From an uncultured Gemmatimonadales bacterium (GTDB lineage Bacteria > Gemmatimonadota > Gemmatimonadetes > Longimicrobiales > RSA9), in the NCBI GenBank assembly GCA_963798085.1, contig CAWCRS010000003.1:800001-864000 (forward strand): a stretch of 64,000 nucleotides of DNA. The letters are read 5' to 3'. Below are positions 56,020 through 64,000 of this stretch, in pieces. The notes under the pieces were generated by a model. That model had not been told where the DNA came from. It ran no database searches and worked only from the letters and a program-made list of their open reading frames with translations. Within the stretch, counting starts at the first letter, position 1, and each line of letters opens with the position of its first letter. The translations under genes and the position numbers were made by a program.

Positions 56020-58191
56020 CTACTTCGCCAGCGGATCGGGCCGGATCTGGAAGTGCAGCACCTTGCTTGTCGTGCCCTTGCCCGTCTCCATGTGGAACGG
56101 CGCGCGCGTGCTCACGGTCGCCAACAGGCCGCTTGCCCTTCCAGCCCGCCTTCGGATCGTCGATGCGCCCGTCCATCCATTTCGCGAAGAAGCCCGATCG
56201 GATACGGCACGCGCAGGACCACCCACTTCCCGTCCTTCAGCGCCAGCAGCACCTTCCGATCCGTTGCCCGTGTCGATCGGCGTGTTCGCACCGAGCCCGA
56301 ATGTGTCGAACTGATCGACCCACGTGTAGTAGCTCGCCTCCGCGCTGCCCCGGATCGGTCACGCCCTTGAACTGCGGCAGCGGGTCCGGATAGAGCGTCC
56401 AGCCTTCCGGGCAGTGCTGACCCGTCGCGGTCGGACCGTTCAGCGGGCCCTTGCACTTGCGCCGGTCGAAGCTGGCGATGTGTCCGCTCGCCAGCGGCGT
56501 CCACACCACGCCGTTGCGATCGATGTCCATGCCGCGCGGCGAGAAGCCCTGCACCGGCGCTGCCGTCCGGATTGACGGCAGCTCGTACACCTCGGCCAGC
56601 GCCGTCTCGGACGGGTTCGCGCCCGGCACGAGTGCGCACCACTGCGCCCGGAAAGCCCAGCACGGAGCCCCACACCGATCCGTCCGCCGCCGGCGCCACG
56701 CCGTAGAAGCCCGCGTTGATGCGCTTGTCCTTCGTCGGATCCACCGGCTGGTTCGGCTCCACGTACGCGTCGCGCTTGCCATTGCCGTTCGTGTCGAGGA
56801 TCAGCGCCGTCCAGCCCTGCGACTTCTGCTTCATCGCCGGTCGCGTCGAACATCTTCGTATCGAGCCAGCCGACGACGCGGGCCTCCGCCGCTCGTCCAC
56901 AGCGTGCGGTTCGCGTCCTCCGCGAACATCAGGTGGTGCGTGCTGAAGCACGTGCTGATGTGCGTGAGCTTCTTCGTCTTCGGATCGTACATCGCCAGCT
57001 GCCGCCCCGACCGCGCAGCGGGAACACCTTCGCCGACGGATGCGTCGAGCCCGCCTTGCAGAACGCGGGATTGTCCGGCGGCCGCACGGTCGAGGTGATC
57101 CACACGCGGCCCTTTTCATCGAACATCGGGTTGTGCACGTTGTTCCTGCTGGTCCACAGGACCTCGGCGCCCCAGTACGGCGATGGCTGCAGCTCGGTCG
57201 GCCCCTGCGCCGGCTCGGTTGCGGATCGCGCACCGTCAGTGGCACGCGCGTGATCGTGTTGCGCACCGGATCCAGCACCGGCAGATAGTCCGTGCTCAGC
57301 TCCAGCGAGCCGTAGATCAGCCCGTTCGCGTTCACCGTCGGATTGCGCCGGTCCGTCGACACCTCGTCGTGCAGATACGCCTTCGGGTCGGCCCAGTCCC
57401 ATTCGGTAATCACGACGTTGCGCTCGATGCCCTGCGGCCGCGGCGGCGCCGGTGGCACTTCGCCCGCCGCGATGCGGTCGGTCCAGTCGGCGAACATCTC
57501 GACCGCGCGGCTGAGGCCGAACTGGTTGAGCGTGCCCAGCATCTGGCTGCCCGCCTGCCCGGACTGCACCCGCCGCTGCCACGCGTCCGTCGACTTGTCG
57601 AAGTGTCCGAGCGCCGCCGGAATCTCGCGCGTGGCCTTGCTGCCGAGCTGGTGGCAGGCCCAGCAGCTGCCGGACTTGAGTGTGCGCAGCCACTGCGCCT
57701 GGTCTGTGCATGTTCGGCGCGATGCCGTTGCCCTCCGGGCCCGTGCCCGGGAACTCGCTCTTCGCCGGCGGCCGCAGCAGCGAGAACCAGTAGCCGGCCG
57801 GATAGTACTGCGCCGCCGCGCGTGCATCCGGCGCCTTCACCGCCTTGAGGTCCAGATGCTTTCCGGGCGACGTGGTGGTGTGCGGCGAATCGACGAGACC
57901 GTAGCCCCGCACCCACACCTCGTAACTCGCTGCGGGAAGATCCGGCAGCAGATACCGACCGCGATCATCAGTCACGACAATGCGGACGAAACGCGTGGGG
58001 AGCGCCGTCGTTTCCGCGATCACCCACACGCCCGCTTCGGGCCCGTTCGGCCCCGTGACGACACCCGCAATGTCGTTGCTGTCAATGGGAATCGTCTGCG
58101 CAGAGAGAGGACTGCGCATCGCGACCCACTGCGTGGCGAGCAGCACGCCGATTCCCACGACAACGCCGCCGCCAAACCGTTTCGTCAGCAT
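56020..58191 (-). pseudogene. Secreted carboxypeptidase-regulatory-like domain + c-type heme + beta-propeller protein, many frameshifts as assembled
   Basis: GPEAGVWVIAET, TDD.GRY..PDLP, YEVWVRGYGLVDS, CWACHQLG, ERNVVIT.WDW, YLHDE, TCFSTHHL.F, C-terminal FQIRPDPLA. Confidence 0.8.
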
Positions 58192-58257
58192 GTCGCCCTC
58201 CGTTGCTCCACGGCCGCTAAACCGTTTCGTCAGCATGTCGCCTTCCTTTGCTCCACG
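58174..58257. repeat. 45-bp-period duplication of the RBS and first codons of the heme-propeller gene
   Basis: AAACCGTTTCGTCAGCATGTCGCC.TCC.TTGCTCCACG at 58174 and 58219; translates as EGDMLTKRF twice. Confidence 0.88.
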
Positions 58258-58402
58258 CCACACCCTGCCTCACCCGCCACGCACTGCGGCCCCGGACTCC
58301 GCATTGAACGACGCCATCCCGGCCGGCGCTGCTCCGTTGCTTCGATCCCGAGCATGCAACCCGGCAACGGTGCCAGGAACGCAACCACTCCGTTGAAACC
58401 AG

Positions 58403-58462
58403 GCCCCAGCCCCAGCCCGCAGTTTCAATTCATCCGTTCCCCAGCAACCAGCCCCAGCAACC
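58403..58462. repeat. Further copy of the CAGCCCCAGCAAC repeat family
   Basis: GCCCCAGCCCCAGCCCGC...GTTCCCCAGCAACCAGCCCCAGCAAC just past the dienelactone hydrolase stop. Confidence 0.7.
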
Positions 58463-58484
58463 CGCCCGGGAAACGGGGCGCCGT

Positions 58485-59485
58485 TCAGGCGCCCAGATAC
58501 TTCTTGAACCACGCGACCGTCATCGGCCACGCCTGCTTCGTCGCCTCGAGGTTCGCAGGCTGGTCCTGCGCACGCAGGAAACCGTGGCCCGCACCTTCGA
58601 ACGAATGCGGCTCGTACGTCTTGTGGATGGCCTTCATCACGGAATCGGTGCGTGCGATCGTCGCGCCCACGCGTGCGTCGCTGCCACCGTACAATCCCAG
58701 CACCGGCGCCTTCATGGTCTTGAAGCCCTCGCGCATGACCGCCGCCTGGTCCACCACCTTGCCGTCAGGCGAGGTGACGCCCGCCTGCGATCGCGTGTAC
58801 TCGCCTGCGCCATACATTTCTCCATCACCGGCCGCAGCGCCATGGCATCGGGCGCTGTTCCGTAGTAGACCACGCTCGCGCTCACGTCCGGCGCGAATAC
58901 CGCGTGCGAGAAGGAGGCGCTGCCGCCCCAGCAGAAGCCGACGATGCCGTACTTCGGCAATGCCGCGGGCAGGCTCATGCCATACTTCGCCACGTCGATC
59001 AGGTACTGGTTGAAGATCTCGGGCGTGATCGCGCGGATCGCCAGAGTCGCCGCCTGCCCGTCCACCTCGCCGTCGGCGGTCCAGGGCACGTTCTTCATGG
59101 TCAGCAGGTCCGGCGCAATCGCAATGTAGCCTTCCGCTGCCATTTGGTCCGCCACCGCACGGATCCAGTTGGACATGCCGAAGATCTCGTGCACCACCAG
59201 CACCACGGGCGCTTTCGTCGACCGCTCGGGATAGACCACCCACGCGCGGATGCTGTCCTGGCCGCTGCGGATCACCGCCCACTCGCCATGCCTCGGCGAC
59301 TTCGCCAGCCGCTCCTTCGCGTCCGCGGCGCCCGCGGGCAGTCCCTTCGCCTGGTCGCCGGCAGGCGTCCTCATTTCAGGCGACGATGCTCTTCCGGGTT
59401 CCGGTCCCGTGGCCCGCCCGATGGCGAACGCAGCCGTCGAGAGTCCCAGCAGCACACCGCCCACCAGCAGTCCCTTCATGCGCAT
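58485..59485 (-). pseudogene. Secreted dienelactone hydrolase family protein, one frameshift near 58800-58850
   Basis: SPRHGEW, VHEIFG, AVADQ.A.EGYIAIAPDL, GFCWGG, YYG, APVLGLYGG.DARV, GAGHGFLR. Confidence 0.88.
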
Positions 59486-59923
59486 GGCTACCATCCCGGT
59501 TGGAGTTGCTTGCGATCCGTATGAACACAGCGCGGTCGCCGCGCTGGAAAGCCAGCCGCGTCGCCGGCGACTCGAAGTCCCATCGTCGCCTGACATCCGT
59601 GAGCCGTGCTGCGACGCCACTGCCATTGGACGCGCCGTCCGGAAGCCGGATTCGGTCGGCCTCGCGTGGCCGGGCCCGACCCGCTCATCCTGGCGCACCG
59701 ACGCGCCGGTTCGACGGGCCCGTGCAGTACGGCCAGCCAGCACCGCATGCCCTACCCGCGGCGTGCCCGATCGAGTCGTCCCGCGAGCCGACTGCATCGT
59801 ACGACCGCCATCGCATTCGCCGCTCGAAGAATTCGCCGGGGAAGAGAGGCACCCTCTCCCGGCGGCCAGCGGCCGCAAGTCGAGCGCGAAGGGCGTGGCC
59901 GCGCCACGCGTCCGCACGACGTT

Positions 59924-60542
59924 TCAGCCCAGCAGTGGCAGCTGTGACCTCGCCAGCGCCGGCACTTCGTGGCAGCGCCGGCACCTCGCCTCGTACGACT
60001 CGCAGTCCGCCGACCTGGATCGTCGGCCCCTCAGCGGCGCCGGGCTGGCCATCGATCAGGCGCTGGTTGCGCGTGGCCAGCTGCCCCGCAGCGCACGCAG
60101 ATCGCGTGCAGCTTGTCCACCTGCTCGGCGATCGGCCAGCAGCGCGGGTATCGGGCCGAACGGCTCGCCCCGGAAGTCCATGTCGGTGCCGGCCACGATC
60201 ACGCGAACGCCGCGGTCGGCGAGGTCGTTGGCGACATCGACGATGCCCATCGTCCAGGAACTGCGCCTCGTCGATCGCGACCACGTGCCGTGCCGCGGGC
60301 GCACCCGCTCGCGATCTGCTCCGACGAGCTACGGGACCGGCTCCGACAGCTGGCGCGCGCCATCGTGCGTGGTGACGCGAGCAGACGCCCGCGTAGCGGT
60401 CGTCGAGGTGCGACTTGAAGACCTGCACCTGCCTGCGGGCGATCACCGCGCGCCGGACGCGGCGCAGCAGCTCCTCCGACTTGCCGCTGAACATCACGCC
60501 GCTGATGACCTCGATCCAGCCGCCGGCTCCAGCGTAGTCCAT
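59924..60542 (-). pseudogene. tdk: Thymidine kinase, frameshifted as assembled
   Basis: [52 protein letters not shown]. Confidence 0.93.
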
Positions 60543-60664
60543 AGCGGGTCCGAAGCTATGCCCGCCGCGGCGTCCTTGTCCATGCCGTGCGCCGCGTCGC
60601 AACAGGGGTTTGCACTGAGCCGCGCGTAGTCCTCTTCCTCACGAAATCGCGCTCATTTCCCGGC

Positions 60665-60845: not shown

Positions 60846-61782
60846 ATGATCGAATGAAGCGAGTCGCGCGGGCACCGGTCCGAGTCTCCGGGATGCCGAA
60901 GCGTTGCTGCGCAGTCTGGTAGGCGTGGCCGGCGCGTTCATCGTAACCGATGCCGAAGGTGTGCTCCGCCGTATTCTCGTGCAGCCCGAGTCCGGCGCCA
61001 GCGAGCGTCGGATCGCACGCAATGTTCTGTCCGCACTCAAGGCGAGATACGGCGTCGATCTCGACGCGTCCGCCATCAGCATAAACGCGGCACCTGCCGA
61101 TAATTCAGGTGACCCGATCACTCTCGCCCGCATGCCGGGCCGGACAACGCCCGCGATCCGCGGTATGGTCCGCTCGGCCGAGTCGCCGAGAGTGATCGCA
61201 GTACGACCTCCCAGAACGGATGATGACGTGCCGACCCTCGTGCGCCAGGAAAACGCTCCGACGATTTCGCCATTGGCGCACGCGCGGCCGGCCCTCGTAC
61301 GCAGGGTAGCGGCGGCGTTGCCGTCGCGCGCCAGCAATGCGGTCCCCTTGGAGCGCATTGACGTGGATGCGGCGTCGGTGCCTGTCGTCCTCGACCAGGG
61401 CAGCGCCATGCGTCCACGTCTCGAACAGGCCGAGCTGCGTCGTGTCGCCGGCACACTTCGTTGCCGCGTCGTGATCGCAACGGGTAACGAGCGCTACGCG
61501 GGTGTGGCCGACGCACTCAATGGTCAGACAACGGAAACCGACCTGGCGGGTCGCGTGACGGTAGACGCGCTGCGTTCCGCGCGCACACCGCGTGATCCCA
61601 TCCAGTTCGAGGGCGCCGCCCTCGTGGATGTCGCCGGTCGTCCGCACGTGGTCATCAGTCTGGCTGTGTGGAGTGGACATGATTTCGAGGCGATCGCCAG
61701 CGCCGAACCCATGCGCGGCTCGCCCGTGGAAGCGACAGCCCGTGCCGTGATCGCCGCCATCAGTTCGCGGTGGCTCGGCTAG
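60846..61782 (+). CDS. Two-domain hypothetical protein (start ATG 60846 needs a 1-nt correction; intact ORF from 60904)
   Basis: AE.LL.SL.GV....IV......RI.V.........RNV.SAL.A.YG...D...ISI N domain, Pro/Arg linker, C domain ending EATARAVIAAI; GAGAGGG RBS before 60846. Confidence 0.75.
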
Positions 61783-61960
61783 GCAGTACGAGCATTGAAA
61801 GCGGTGGCATCAGCCGCCGCCTGGCATACACAACGGAGAAACAAAGGACAACGGAAAGGAGCCCCCGACCCACTGACAGCGAAGCCCCAGCACTAGCGAA
61901 GAAGCGGAGAGTCGCGACCCCCAAAAAAGGTCGACGTCACTCCGAAGGAGGTGAGGCTGG

Positions 61961-62033
61961 GTGCAAACAGTTCTGGACGTTCTGGGCGCAATTCTTAGCG
62001 CCCTCTCGGGTGGGTTTATTCAGCGTGAACTAA
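61961..62033 (+). CDS. Putative 23-aa hydrophobic peptide MQTVLDVLGAILSALSGGLFSVN (requires removal of one T at 62015-62017)
   Basis: Perfect SD AAGGAGGTGA at 61945-61954, GTG 61961, TAA 62031-62033 one base out of frame; the next gene has its own ATG at 62061. Confidence 0.6.
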
Positions 62034-62060
62034 GTGCGGTTGGGGGCTCCTCGACACAAC

Positions 62061-63408
62061 ATGACGCGGAAGTCCGCATTACGTTTTTATCGAACGTTGC
62101 CGTGGCTTGGCTGCTGACTGGCTTTGGGCGTTGCCATTCCCGAACCGCTGTTGCACCTCCAAGCTCAACACGTTGCTGGCTTATTTGCGTTTTCGGTGTG
62201 GCCATTCTCGCTGAGGGACTTGCAATAGACTTTGGCGTGGGAAAGCAGGCTCGGTCCTCGATGGCATTTCTGCCATTGCTGGCGTCGCACTGTTCTTCCC
62301 ACCGGCGTTTCAATGGTGGTCGGCTGCAAGTAGTCTGTATGCCATATCGAATTTGGTCTTTAGGCGGCAATGGAATTTCGAAGGTCATTTCAATATCTCC
62401 CAGGCTGCTCTCTCGGTTGGCCTTGCAGGTGCGTTATATATCACGTTCATGTCTCTCGATCAAGCAAAGTCTGCCACTTGCGTGCGCTCTCAGTAGCCTA
62501 TTGGGCGTTTGCCGGCTTGGCCATCAGTGTTTTTCACAGTCAACATCTGTTTTCCAGTTGTGCTATTGCGGTGATTCGAGAACAGACCGGTGATCGAGTA
62601 CGCTCGCAGGTAATCGGGCCTCAGTGGTGGCAATCTGTGGTACGACCTATTGGCAAGTCCAATTGCGATAGTCCCAGCAGTTCTCTACTTCCAGCACTAT
62701 GATCGGAGGGATTGCTCATTATCCTCCTGCCATGCTGCTGATTCGATATTCCTACCAATCGAAACTGCAGCTCGAAGAGGCGAACCGTGATCTGCTGAAG
62801 GTGCTTGTCAAAGCCATCGAGACCCGTGATCCATATACCTCCGGACATTCGGTGCGCGTCGCCACTATTTCACGCGCGATCGCTGAAAGACATCGGGTTG
62901 CCGCGCCGTCAATTGGACGAAATAGAACTGCCGCGCTCCTACATGACATTGGTAAGATCGATTCCGTCTACGAGCTAGTAATTCGAAAGCCACATGATCT
63001 CACGGACGTAGAGCGAACACTGATCAGACGCACGCAACCAAGGGGGCTGATCTACTGCAGTCGCTGAGCTCCGTCAGCAAGGAGGTCATCTTAGCGGTAC
63101 GCCACCATCATGAACGTTACGACGGCACGGGCTATCCGTCGGGGTTGAACGGCGAGGAGATTCCGATCGCAGCTCGCATCATAATGATGTCTGACTCAGT
63201 CGATGCGATGTTATCAGACCGGCCATATAGGCGAGCCCTGCCGTTGACGAAAGTTAGATCTGAACTCATCCGTTGCTCTGGCTCACAATTCGATCCAACG
63301 ATCATACAGACCGTGTTGCAGCATAACACGCTTGAGCGAGCAGCAGCGCTCGTGGGCCGCCCACAGTCTGCCGACCTCCAGCTCGTCACCGTGACTGGAT
63401 CGGCATAG
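62061..63408 (+). pseudogene. HD-GYP phosphodiesterase with N-terminal multi-TM sensor domain, several frameshifts as assembled
   Basis: Hydrophobic N-terminal fragments, then LVKAIETRDPYTSGHS.RVA, AALLHDIGKI, VRHHHERYDGTGYP.GL.GEEIP..ARII...D..DAM.SDRPYR. Confidence 0.9.
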
Positions 63409-63571
63409 GCGTTTCGACTCCTGCCCTTGCTGACGGCAGTTCAAAGCAATCTTGAAAGCGGAGTCGCTTGCATCTTGCTACGTCCCACCTAGCCATTGCA
63501 AGCGCGTGCAATCAGGGCAATATTGCCTTTGACTTGTTGTATCTCCGGCCACGACCGACCGGGTTAGCGCC

Positions 63572-64000
63572 GTGTCAGCCGTTCGAATACACACTCTCGG
63601 AGACTGCTTCGTAAGAGTTGATGGCGGCACGGTGAGGCGTCCGCCGCCACTCCAGTTCGCCGTGCTTGTGTATCTTGCCTGGCGGGGTGACTATGCAATT
63701 TCCGCCAATGAACTAGCGGCGCTTTTTTGGGGCGAACTGCCAGAAAGTCGTGCTAAACGTTGCCTCAGTCAGTGTCTCTATGCCCTGAGGCGCTCTTTGT
63801 TATTGCCGATAGACGTAGCGAGCGGTACCGTTGTGTTGAAACCTTCTTCCATTTTCGTTGACGCGAAAGCGTTCCTTGTGCTAGTCGCCGCTGGCAAACT
63901 TCGTGACGCCGCTGCTATGCACTCCGGTACGTTCTTGGCCCACCTACGACTGCGCGGGAAGCGTGACTTCAGATTTTGGCATGACAGGGTTGCAGCTGAT
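63572..64000 (+). CDS. AfsR/SARP-family (winged HTH + BTAD) transcriptional regulator, 3'-truncated by the window; absent from the ORF track
   Basis: Manual translation from GTG 63572: RIHTLG...AVLVYLA...ELAALFWGE....AKRCLSQCLYALRRSL...VDAKAF...GTFL...DFRFW; no stop before 64000. Confidence 0.85.
   Translation, partial: MSAVRIHTLGDCFVRVDGGTVRRPPPLQFAVLVYLAWRGDYAISANELAALFWGELPESRAKRCLSQCLYALRRSLLLPIDVASGTVVLKPSSIFVDAKAFLVLVAAGKLRDAAAMHSGTFLAHLRLRGKRDFRFWHDRVAAD

Follow-up and report, generated by a model that had tools for sequence, protein, structure and literature searches.

What does a short hydrophobic reading frame lying between a structured RNA and the gene of a membrane enzyme encode, and on what would its product act? 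We addressed this question in the window, a stretch of 64,000 nucleotides from a genome of 12 contigs with 67% GC and with protein homologues assigned to Gemmatimonadota, in which an earlier note had read, from the letters alone, a micro-ORF masked by a one-base indel. The elements of that reading are visible in the sequence: the plus strand carries a ribosome-binding site, AAGGAGGTGA, at 61945..61954, with a GAG core that is invariant in 28 sequences, followed by a GTG at 61961, from which frame A continues into a mosaic 210-aa ORF (61961-62593), and the +1 frame reaches a TAA at 62031-62033. Joined, the frames give a micro-ORF of 23 codons (61961..62033, plus strand) that would encode an amphipathic helix, an S-G-G hinge, and the five-residue tail F-I-S-V-N.

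Judging from its homologues and their coding signature, this micro-ORF is a real gene, well beyond chance. Intact homologues of 19-37 codons occupy the same place in relatives and amount to 84 distinct peptides of 19-37 residues, starting with GTG, TTG, or ATG, mostly 8-12 nt 3' of a GGAGG-type site. Across 18 disjoint homologue pairs, counted after exclusion of the frameshifted or doubtful copies L185, L192, L194, and L199, single changes comprise 84 synonymous and 42 non-synonymous ones, and codon positions 1, 2, and 3 differ at 16%, 8%, and 29%, respectively. At every intact locus, a short hydrophobic ORF lies 3' of an RNA leader and is followed by a separate long ORF, the distance from its stop to the next ATG being 22-57 nt in 69 of 70 loci; the case that would have spoken against the micro-ORF, in which the hydrophobic segment forms the first helix of an HD-GYP protein, was looked for and did not occur. 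The amphipathic character ascribed to the peptide is likewise borne out, the hydrophobic moment peaking at 100 degrees. Leader and peptide match no family in Rfam, Pfam, or NCBIfam; four of eight peptide genes looked up are on record, all with at least 32 residues and annotated as hypothetical. A peptide profile found no match in the window's genome, where the gene is broken. The micro-ORF itself stood; three things had escaped the earlier note, namely the RNA leader including its long-range helix, the fact that the downstream sensor is MASE9, and the spread of the locus to other phyla.

The indel that breaks the gene finds support in the homologues, but at another place than first proposed. 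Without one T of 62019-62020 (plus strand), the window is collinear codon for codon with the closest homologue, L089, with 16 nucleotide and five amino acid differences, compared with 17 and seven if a T of 62015-62017 is removed instead, and a MAFFT alignment set its gap at 62019 unprompted. The placement follows from the residue pattern, the nucleotide margin being one base only: the peptide of L089 ends in G-G-F-I-I-V-T-stop, and G-G-F-I-T-I occurs in L028 and L090 and C-G-F-I-T-I in L027, such that the tail previously read as LFSVN becomes F-I-S-V-N. No RNA run was listed for the sequence. A DNA run with 0.09 of the words has no read over this site; we therefore infer, rather than see, that the extra T is an assembly error. 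In L027, the usual GTG is out of frame by one base and an ATG 4 nt 3' of the ribosome site gives a 24-residue peptide, which reflects either a shifted start or another one-base error.

The gene that follows (62061..63408, plus strand) is broken as well, with nine frameshifts relative to L002 or L005 and 12 relative to L089. These are most likely assembly errors, to judge from the aligned path, which contains no stop and retains 60-65% identity with the motifs LLHDIGK and HHERYDGTGYP intact; nor was a stop codon found within the MASE9 match in 29 relatives. The frameshifts in both genes could instead be true mutations, making this genome's copy a decaying pseudogene of a genuine family. We keep a small share of belief for such decay because of the missing read coverage and the local excess of frameshifts, about 7-9 per kb in the enzyme gene against 1.0 per kb in ten other genes (12 in 11,857 nt; range 0 to 5). 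This nevertheless seems rather improbable, as error density is patchy, with four frameshifts in 792 nt of an ordinary gene 3 kb upstream, and broken copies of the cassette also occur in several other long-contig genomes. Ordinary genes at 56112-60600, which by their motifs we take to be dienelactone-hydrolase-like and thymidine-kinase-like, are also split into mosaic frames in an error-rich part of the contig.

By the profile matches of its intact homologues, three of four of which exceed the cut-off for PF20972 (MASE9) and four of four that for PF13487 (HD-GYP), the product of this gene is predicted to be a MASE9-HD-GYP c-di-GMP phosphodiesterase; in the window's broken copy, the family profile matched in three pieces and PF20972 gave no direct match. 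A MASE9 model built from 68 sequences (pLDDT 93.9) predicts a six-helix core with an L1 lid and models as an ECF S-component fold. Its 14 best fold matches are all S-components, at Z 10.3-13.9 against about 6 or less for unrelated rows, the highest value lying near the level that helical bundles reach by arrangement alone. That match has an rmsd of 3.2 over 162 aligned residues (4hzu_S, FolT, RibU, and NikM/CbiM were compared), and NikM 4m5c gives Z 13.1 over 191 residues, its extra first helix included. Foldseek likewise ranks S-components first, at E 0.02 or worse, with nothing under E 0.001. Unlike ECF S-components, with which it shares 8-15% identity, MASE9 is fused to an enzyme and has no ECF ATPase or T module nearby. 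S-components keep small ligands in an outward pocket beneath a lid loop; the common fold does not show which ligand MASE9 would hold.

In the preprint of Galperin and Chou, leaving aside its supplements, no MASE9 ligand is named and binding is expected within the membrane (10.1101/2021.11.05.467447). The same domain pair occurs in membrane-bound TM1467 of Thermotoga maritima and HdgA of Streptomyces venezuelae, neither with a known ligand; the descriptions of these proteins, in the parts accessible to us, differ from the present locus in mentioning neither an upstream peptide gene nor an RNA leader (10.1101/2021.11.05.467447, PMC6205966), and the words “peptide,” “small protein,” and “upstream” occur zero times in the preprint outside its supplements. 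According to the accessible text of the respective papers, deletion of hdgA and hdgB in Streptomyces venezuelae gave no phenotype under standard growth (PMC6205966, PMC13232838), which in the case of HdgA, the one member studied, its authors ascribed to a lack of activating signals (PMC6205966). Among plasmid records, the MASE9 part found no match. One genome of the family carries a second, more distant MASE9 copy without a leader match (G068:C142).

What kind of peptide precedes this enzyme? In the window's group, the peptides have a mean hydropathy of 1.6 and fewer than 50 residues with one hydrophobic helix, as in small membrane modulators; the helix is amphipathic and spans 16-18 residues. 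A hinge follows, consisting of a small residue (24 of 27), a variable residue, and a glycine (26 of 27). In agreement with the short tail proposed before, 4-6 residues lie behind the conserved glycine in the homologues, running in this group from an aromatic or aliphatic residue through L/V/I and T/I/Q to V/I/L. The second group ends mostly in A/S-E-G-Q-x-W and has tryptophan among the last three residues in 54 of 57 members.

The earlier note had read the peptide as a possible double-glycine leader releasing a Phr-like pentapeptide, a scheme in which a C39 transporter would make the cut and the pentapeptide would be re-imported. This copy does show GG followed by five residues, hydrophobic residues at -4, -7, -12, and -15 from the GG, and a C39 domain in its genome. 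The double-glycine (C39/PCAT) motif has glycine at -2 of the cleavage site, as in GG, GA, or GS. Among the 27 family homologues, the residue before the conserved second glycine is A in 16, G in six, K in two, and S, L, or R in one each, and a GG in only six of 27 is not what a double-glycine precursor would show. Additionally, as the note had observed, no peptidase or exporter is linked to the peptide, either at its own locus or at eight long loci, which also lack a linked RRNPP-type receptor, and the single C39 match of the genome lies on another contig (C5). The gene adjoining the peptide gene is that of a membrane enzyme, and a large regulator gene further down is gone from behind it in L064 and L065. 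The peptide is outside the double-glycine family and probably outside the Phr family, and the variable residue at -2 largely refutes a processing scheme of this kind, which we regard as highly improbable.

A small-any-Gly pattern also fits the rule of signal peptidases. In a Sec-type test of the window's group, a small residue occupies -3 in 24 of 27 and glycine -1 in 26 of 27, and the N-terminal net charge is zero or below in 26 of 27; release of the tail is doubtful in this group because the positive N-terminus of Sec signal peptides is missing. Actinomycetotal members start with MK or MKR and often end in A-G-A plus 4-6 residues.

The peptide gene accompanies one type of sensor across phyla. 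Searched from the sensor side, with the leader left unused, it was found 5' of MASE9 at 23 of the 24 Gemmatimonadota-type loci that include upstream DNA. In an actinomycetotal sample (MASE9 matches in 86 of 201 genomes, 30 loci read, two unpublished genomes entering the tally only), it lies 5' of 14 of the 16 MASE9 loci with HD or HD-GYP motifs and of two of the six short ones without a recognised motif, and it was found in none of the eight long MASE9 loci, two of which have less than 400 nt upstream. These ORFs are hydrophobic and have their own ribosome site, and most end in a hinge with glycine followed by a tail with Trp or Phe. Nonomuraea gerenzanensis, for example, has a 34-codon peptide gene with a W-T end, five bases 5' of the GGAGG that leads the enzyme gene. 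In a probable Chloroflexota sample taken around a Dehalococcoidales-titled genome, with 10 of 121 genomes matched, a peptide gene lies 5' of seven of nine short MASE9 loci and before neither of two long ones.

This distribution bears on the possibility that the peptide is membrane-active but has another target, as a type I toxin-like peptide or an accessory subunit, and merely shares a transcript with the enzyme. Type I toxin mRNAs have 5' and 3' ends that pair, and the present mRNA, whose ends also pair (see below), likewise encodes a short hydrophobic helix; besides, one of 84 members matches TisB at E 0.024, below any cut-off. The gene is, however, single-copy and strictly linked to one sensor family in three phyla, it does not precede the long MASE9 proteins, and no antisense promoter-like site was found. 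We therefore consider a separate target very unlikely.

A closer relation between tail and sensor was sought in their divergence, for which 48 of 62 loci served; the other 14 had mis-called starts or another gene upstream and were set aside. The more similar two tails are, the more similar are their MASE9 domains, at rho 0.60-0.77 in three pairings of 24 disjoint pairs, the partial correlation between the two being taken with the HD-GYP domain, the upstream gene, the leader, and the spacer removed. Other parts follow MASE9 at 0.15-0.50 (helix), 0.30-0.46 (leader), and 0.13-0.34 (the spacer, which lies between tail and MASE9 and tracks it only weakly), and the tail still tracks the lid region after removal of the nearer first helix (rho 0.40-0.72). 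These correlations are hints: the segments are short and noisy, the tests many, and the genomes related, and some of the tail-MASE9 gradient would be expected from linkage by itself. Within one 90% cluster, all ten of ten members agree in residues 1-19, and their tails take four forms.

Twelve of 44 minus-strand leader matches lie on metagenome contigs that end within 80 nt 3' of the leader, inside the peptide gene, against zero of 47 plus-strand matches on contigs ending equally close on the 5' side (Fisher p 7e-5, kin not being independent), and three contigs start at MASE9 profile position 170-174. The breaks suggest that strains vary in a stretch running from the peptide into the sensor, and they may also have other causes. 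In one genome, the contigs L123 and L128 share an exact overlap, which spans the leader's 3' half and codons 1-20 and resembles a branch of an assembly graph.

Among five close genomes, the flanks are mostly 80-97% identical and MASE9 56-86%, with synonymous divergences of 0.25 in the upstream gene, 0.28 in the peptide, 0.73 (saturated) in MASE9, and 0.51 in the HD-GYP part. A strict allele block of peptide and sensor finds no support in these values: with 0.73 in MASE9, where synonymous divergence is saturated, and 0.28 in the peptide, where it is not, they argue against a single old block being exchanged. In L149 and L158, peptides two residues apart precede sensors of different type.

The gene is embedded in an RNA element. 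The best-kept DNA of the locus is the 110 nt before the GTG, with 75-83% identity, above that of coding genes, in a DNA search that matched 25 of 61 genomes. This structured, single-copy leader (61855..61963, plus strand), marked by three AGCG(G/A)AG repeats at 61878, 61895, and 61903, was found by a covariance model, R1, in 35 of the 73 genomes that represent the window's family, one copy each (13 of these sequences had also built the model), and by a model R2 in 57 of 151 genomes of a second family. Outside Gemmatimonadota, where R2 reaches E 0.011 at best, the shared motif was counted by pattern. A separate pattern scan, of species genomes, gave at least 119 stretches, and among the 80 matches listed, 72 are the element and eight chance matches. 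The titles of the listed matches are Gemmatimonadota except for four, one of them Bacillota-titled; such titles are unsafe, since a Bacillota-titled genome taken as centre led to Gemmatimonadota-type loci. No Rfam family reached its gathering threshold, the best match in the window having E 1.3 and L089, L129, and L163 giving none. The leader is an uncatalogued, covarying RNA common to two phyla.

Three helices, all on the plus strand, organise the region, whose fold from 61855 to 62065 has a z of -4.04. The hairpin P3 (61913..61936), with a bulged A and in homologues often a UAGCG(G/A) loop, is 98% paired with compensatory changes in five of seven pairs, and P2, which joins 61886..61891 to 61956-61961 between ribosome site and start codon, is 87% paired with such changes in three of six pairs (38 sequences). 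A further helix, in which the third AGCGGA would pair with bases preceding the ribosome site, was only 38% paired and was dropped. AGCG(G/A) recurs three to five times, often once in the P3 loop; as it complements the (C)GCT lying between the ribosome site and the start codon, alternative pairings exist.

The third helix, P1, is long-range and connects 61857..61874, with the core GGAGCCCCC, to 62033..62051, with the core GGGGGCTCC at 62042-62050, its 3' strand reaching from the peptide stop to 9 nt before the next ATG. In 28 sequences, 83.5% of its cells are paired around a near-invariant core, where pairs changed on both sides do not exceed shuffles (191/500) and the other four covariation measures do. 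Because the core hardly varies in the window's family, support for P1 comes from its flanks and from L056, L060, whose arms are wholly different yet complementary, and the actinomycetotal L250, which has a version of 22 pairs. Over 65 loci, P1 has a median of 13 pairs, begins within 12 nt of the peptide stop in 57, ends at a median of 14 nt 5' of the ATG that follows, and in 40 loci scores better than each of 20 shuffles. An ordinary ribosome site is missing from the enzyme gene; instead, a GGGGG lies 11-16 nt from its ATG, within P1, and a ribosome terminating at the peptide stop should open this helix.

The position and covariation of P1, together with the GGGGG inside it, form the case for the main rival explanation, in which the ORF is a leader peptide acting only in cis: its translation, or stalling at its tail, would open P1 and gate synthesis of the phosphodiesterase, and the peptide would have no target. 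A conserved Trp or Gly motif at the C terminus would be compatible with an arrest peptide as well. Such a role explains less well why P1 exceeds all shuffles in only those 40 loci, why the amphipathic helix is kept, and why the tail tracks the sensor. Moreover, the AGCGGAGCG core is present at seven of 16 actinomycetotal and none of six chloroflexotal peptide loci; being absent at many peptide-MASE9 loci, it indicates that the peptide is tied to the sensor more closely than the RNA is, and the peptide stays with MASE9-HD-GYP where neither leader core nor P1 is found. At two loci from low-GC members of the actinomycetotal sample (L244:1160-1350 and L253), the peptide gene is present as two identical copies in tandem, both preceded by a separate ribosome site. 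Since the peptide is often kept without the RNA and sometimes tandemly duplicated, its product appears to matter, and we consider a purely cis-acting leader peptide unlikely.

In three probable Chloroflexota loci (L271, L273, and L275), a c-di-GMP-II riboswitch lies 5' of the peptide gene. Between the two, the final codons of the peptide gene recur in a short stretch (K-G-W-stop), which may be the relic of a second peptide copy.

As for proteins acting on the leader, CsrA was discarded as a required binder of its GGA-rich repeats, csrA being present in 13 of 35 leader-bearing genomes and not found in five of them with at most eight contigs and 95-97% completeness. The window's genome has two copies of CsrA and one ANTAR domain. 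Just 5' of P1, the A/C-rich stretch 61830-61860 holds four A-N-G-G-A motifs and is GGA-rich in several relatives as well. A sigma-70 scan found no promoter.

Taken together, the linkage and the correlated divergence lead us to lean modestly toward a peptide that acts on the adjoining MASE9-HD-GYP protein through its tail, either tethered or released. If expressed, its helix would enter or cross the membrane and place the C-terminal tail, behind the conserved glycine, on the outer face, where it would remain attached or be cut off. The tail could then dock into the outward-facing pocket of MASE9, with its S-component-like fold, and alter c-di-GMP hydrolysis by the HD-GYP domain, in one direction or the other. 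The RNA leader would set the amounts of peptide and enzyme, P2 covering the stretch from ribosome site to start codon and a ribosome halted at the peptide stop opening P1, which would otherwise abut the region where the enzyme gene starts.

By analogy, the peptide most likely works like a small modulator of a sensor or a pheromone precursor. Peptide pheromone systems comparable with the cassette include ComC-ComD, as described in the accessible part of the source (PMC10630487), as well as AgrD-AgrC, Phr, and SHP. The cassette resembles such systems in combining a precursor gene adjoining the receptor gene with a short variable C-terminal tail and a fast-diverging sensor between conserved flanks, and differs from them in having no dedicated peptidase or exporter, kinase, or RRNPP regulator and in its output, c-di-GMP. 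In the partial text available for SafA, UgtL, and MgrB, these partners of PhoQ also consist of one helix and a short segment on the outside with which they act on a sensor, the C-terminal region of SafA contacting the sensor cavity (PMC8534201). In contrast to them, the present peptide is half the size, its gene lies directly before that of its putative target and inside a structured RNA, and this target, instead of being a histidine kinase, is a c-di-GMP phosphodiesterase that carries an S-component-like domain (PMC8534201). Riboswitch-controlled small membrane proteins of Clostridioides difficile are similarly tied to c-di-GMP through an RNA leader; according to the portion of the report at hand, they are outputs of c-di-GMP for sporulation, whereas here the peptide is linked to a degrading enzyme, and the Gemmatimonadota leader matches no Rfam family (PMC13724677).

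A bolder version, which we put forward tentatively and with some doubt, is a cross-phylum system in which a precursor is cut behind the glycine and a peptide of 3-6 residues is sensed by a receptor-phosphodiesterase derived from an S-component, with strain-specific, pherotype-like tails and sensors and with the AGCG-repeat RNA as an undescribed switch in the place of the c-di-GMP-II riboswitch. MASE9 is a widespread sensor without a known ligand, for which the tail is a candidate, and the co-encoded peptide, mostly missed by gene callers, makes the ligand question testable in culturable actinomycetes. Should the tail be released, a c-di-GMP enzyme would itself read a peptide signal; signals of this type are absent from a 2022 census, which in the sections accessible to us gives only BDSF, a fatty acid, and AI-2 among quorum molecules with direct binding in c-di-GMP networks (PMC8846402). 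No description of the cassette of peptide and MASE9-HD-GYP turned up in the literature searched, which did not extend to subscription journals or the supplements of the MASE9 preprint.

The surroundings of the cassette are partly conserved. Upstream, on the plus strand, lies a conserved gene without a Pfam match (60904..61782), a usual but not obligatory neighbour, in whose place eight loci have what by eye is a response-regulator-like gene. The C-terminal 130 residues of its product are predicted to adopt the regulatory fold of LeuA/citramalate synthase (pLDDT 92.9; 3f6g, Z 9.5, rmsd 3.1, 109 aligned), and the halves of this domain each resemble dsRBD/S5 RNA-binding modules at Z of about 6.5 (also in L163:1303-1692); on these models, branched-chain amino acids and the leader RNA are candidate ligands of the protein. 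Its stop is followed by a GC-rich stem-loop without a U tract (61801..61820, plus strand), read from the sequence and not scored as a terminator.

At about 62000, GC falls from 0.65-0.7 to 0.50-0.58. Downstream of the enzyme gene, a large low-GC regulator gene with an N-terminal winged helix begins (63572..64000, plus strand; Trans_reg_C at E 0.015, below cut-off) and leaves the window; its motifs are those of what is presumably a SARP/AfsR-like protein, and homologues of 1050-1125 residues stand 3' of the HD-GYP gene in several relatives. Where it is missing, mobile or restriction-modification-like genes lie directly behind the HD-GYP gene (L064:5908-12301 and L065:6720-9423). The block from the peptide to the large regulator is low in GC and conserved in place in every relative (window 62000-64000, L061-L068), with a third-position GC of about 0.63 and genes at 0.50-0.61 GC against about 0.7 in the flanks, and its synonymous sites saturate early. 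It could stem from lost recombination among diverged alleles or from a local mutational hot zone. At contig position ~866800-867800, and likewise in L062, L063, and L067, the block is closed by a GC-rich gene of what looks like an HTH regulator on the opposite strand, which its motifs lead us to assume is AraC-like.
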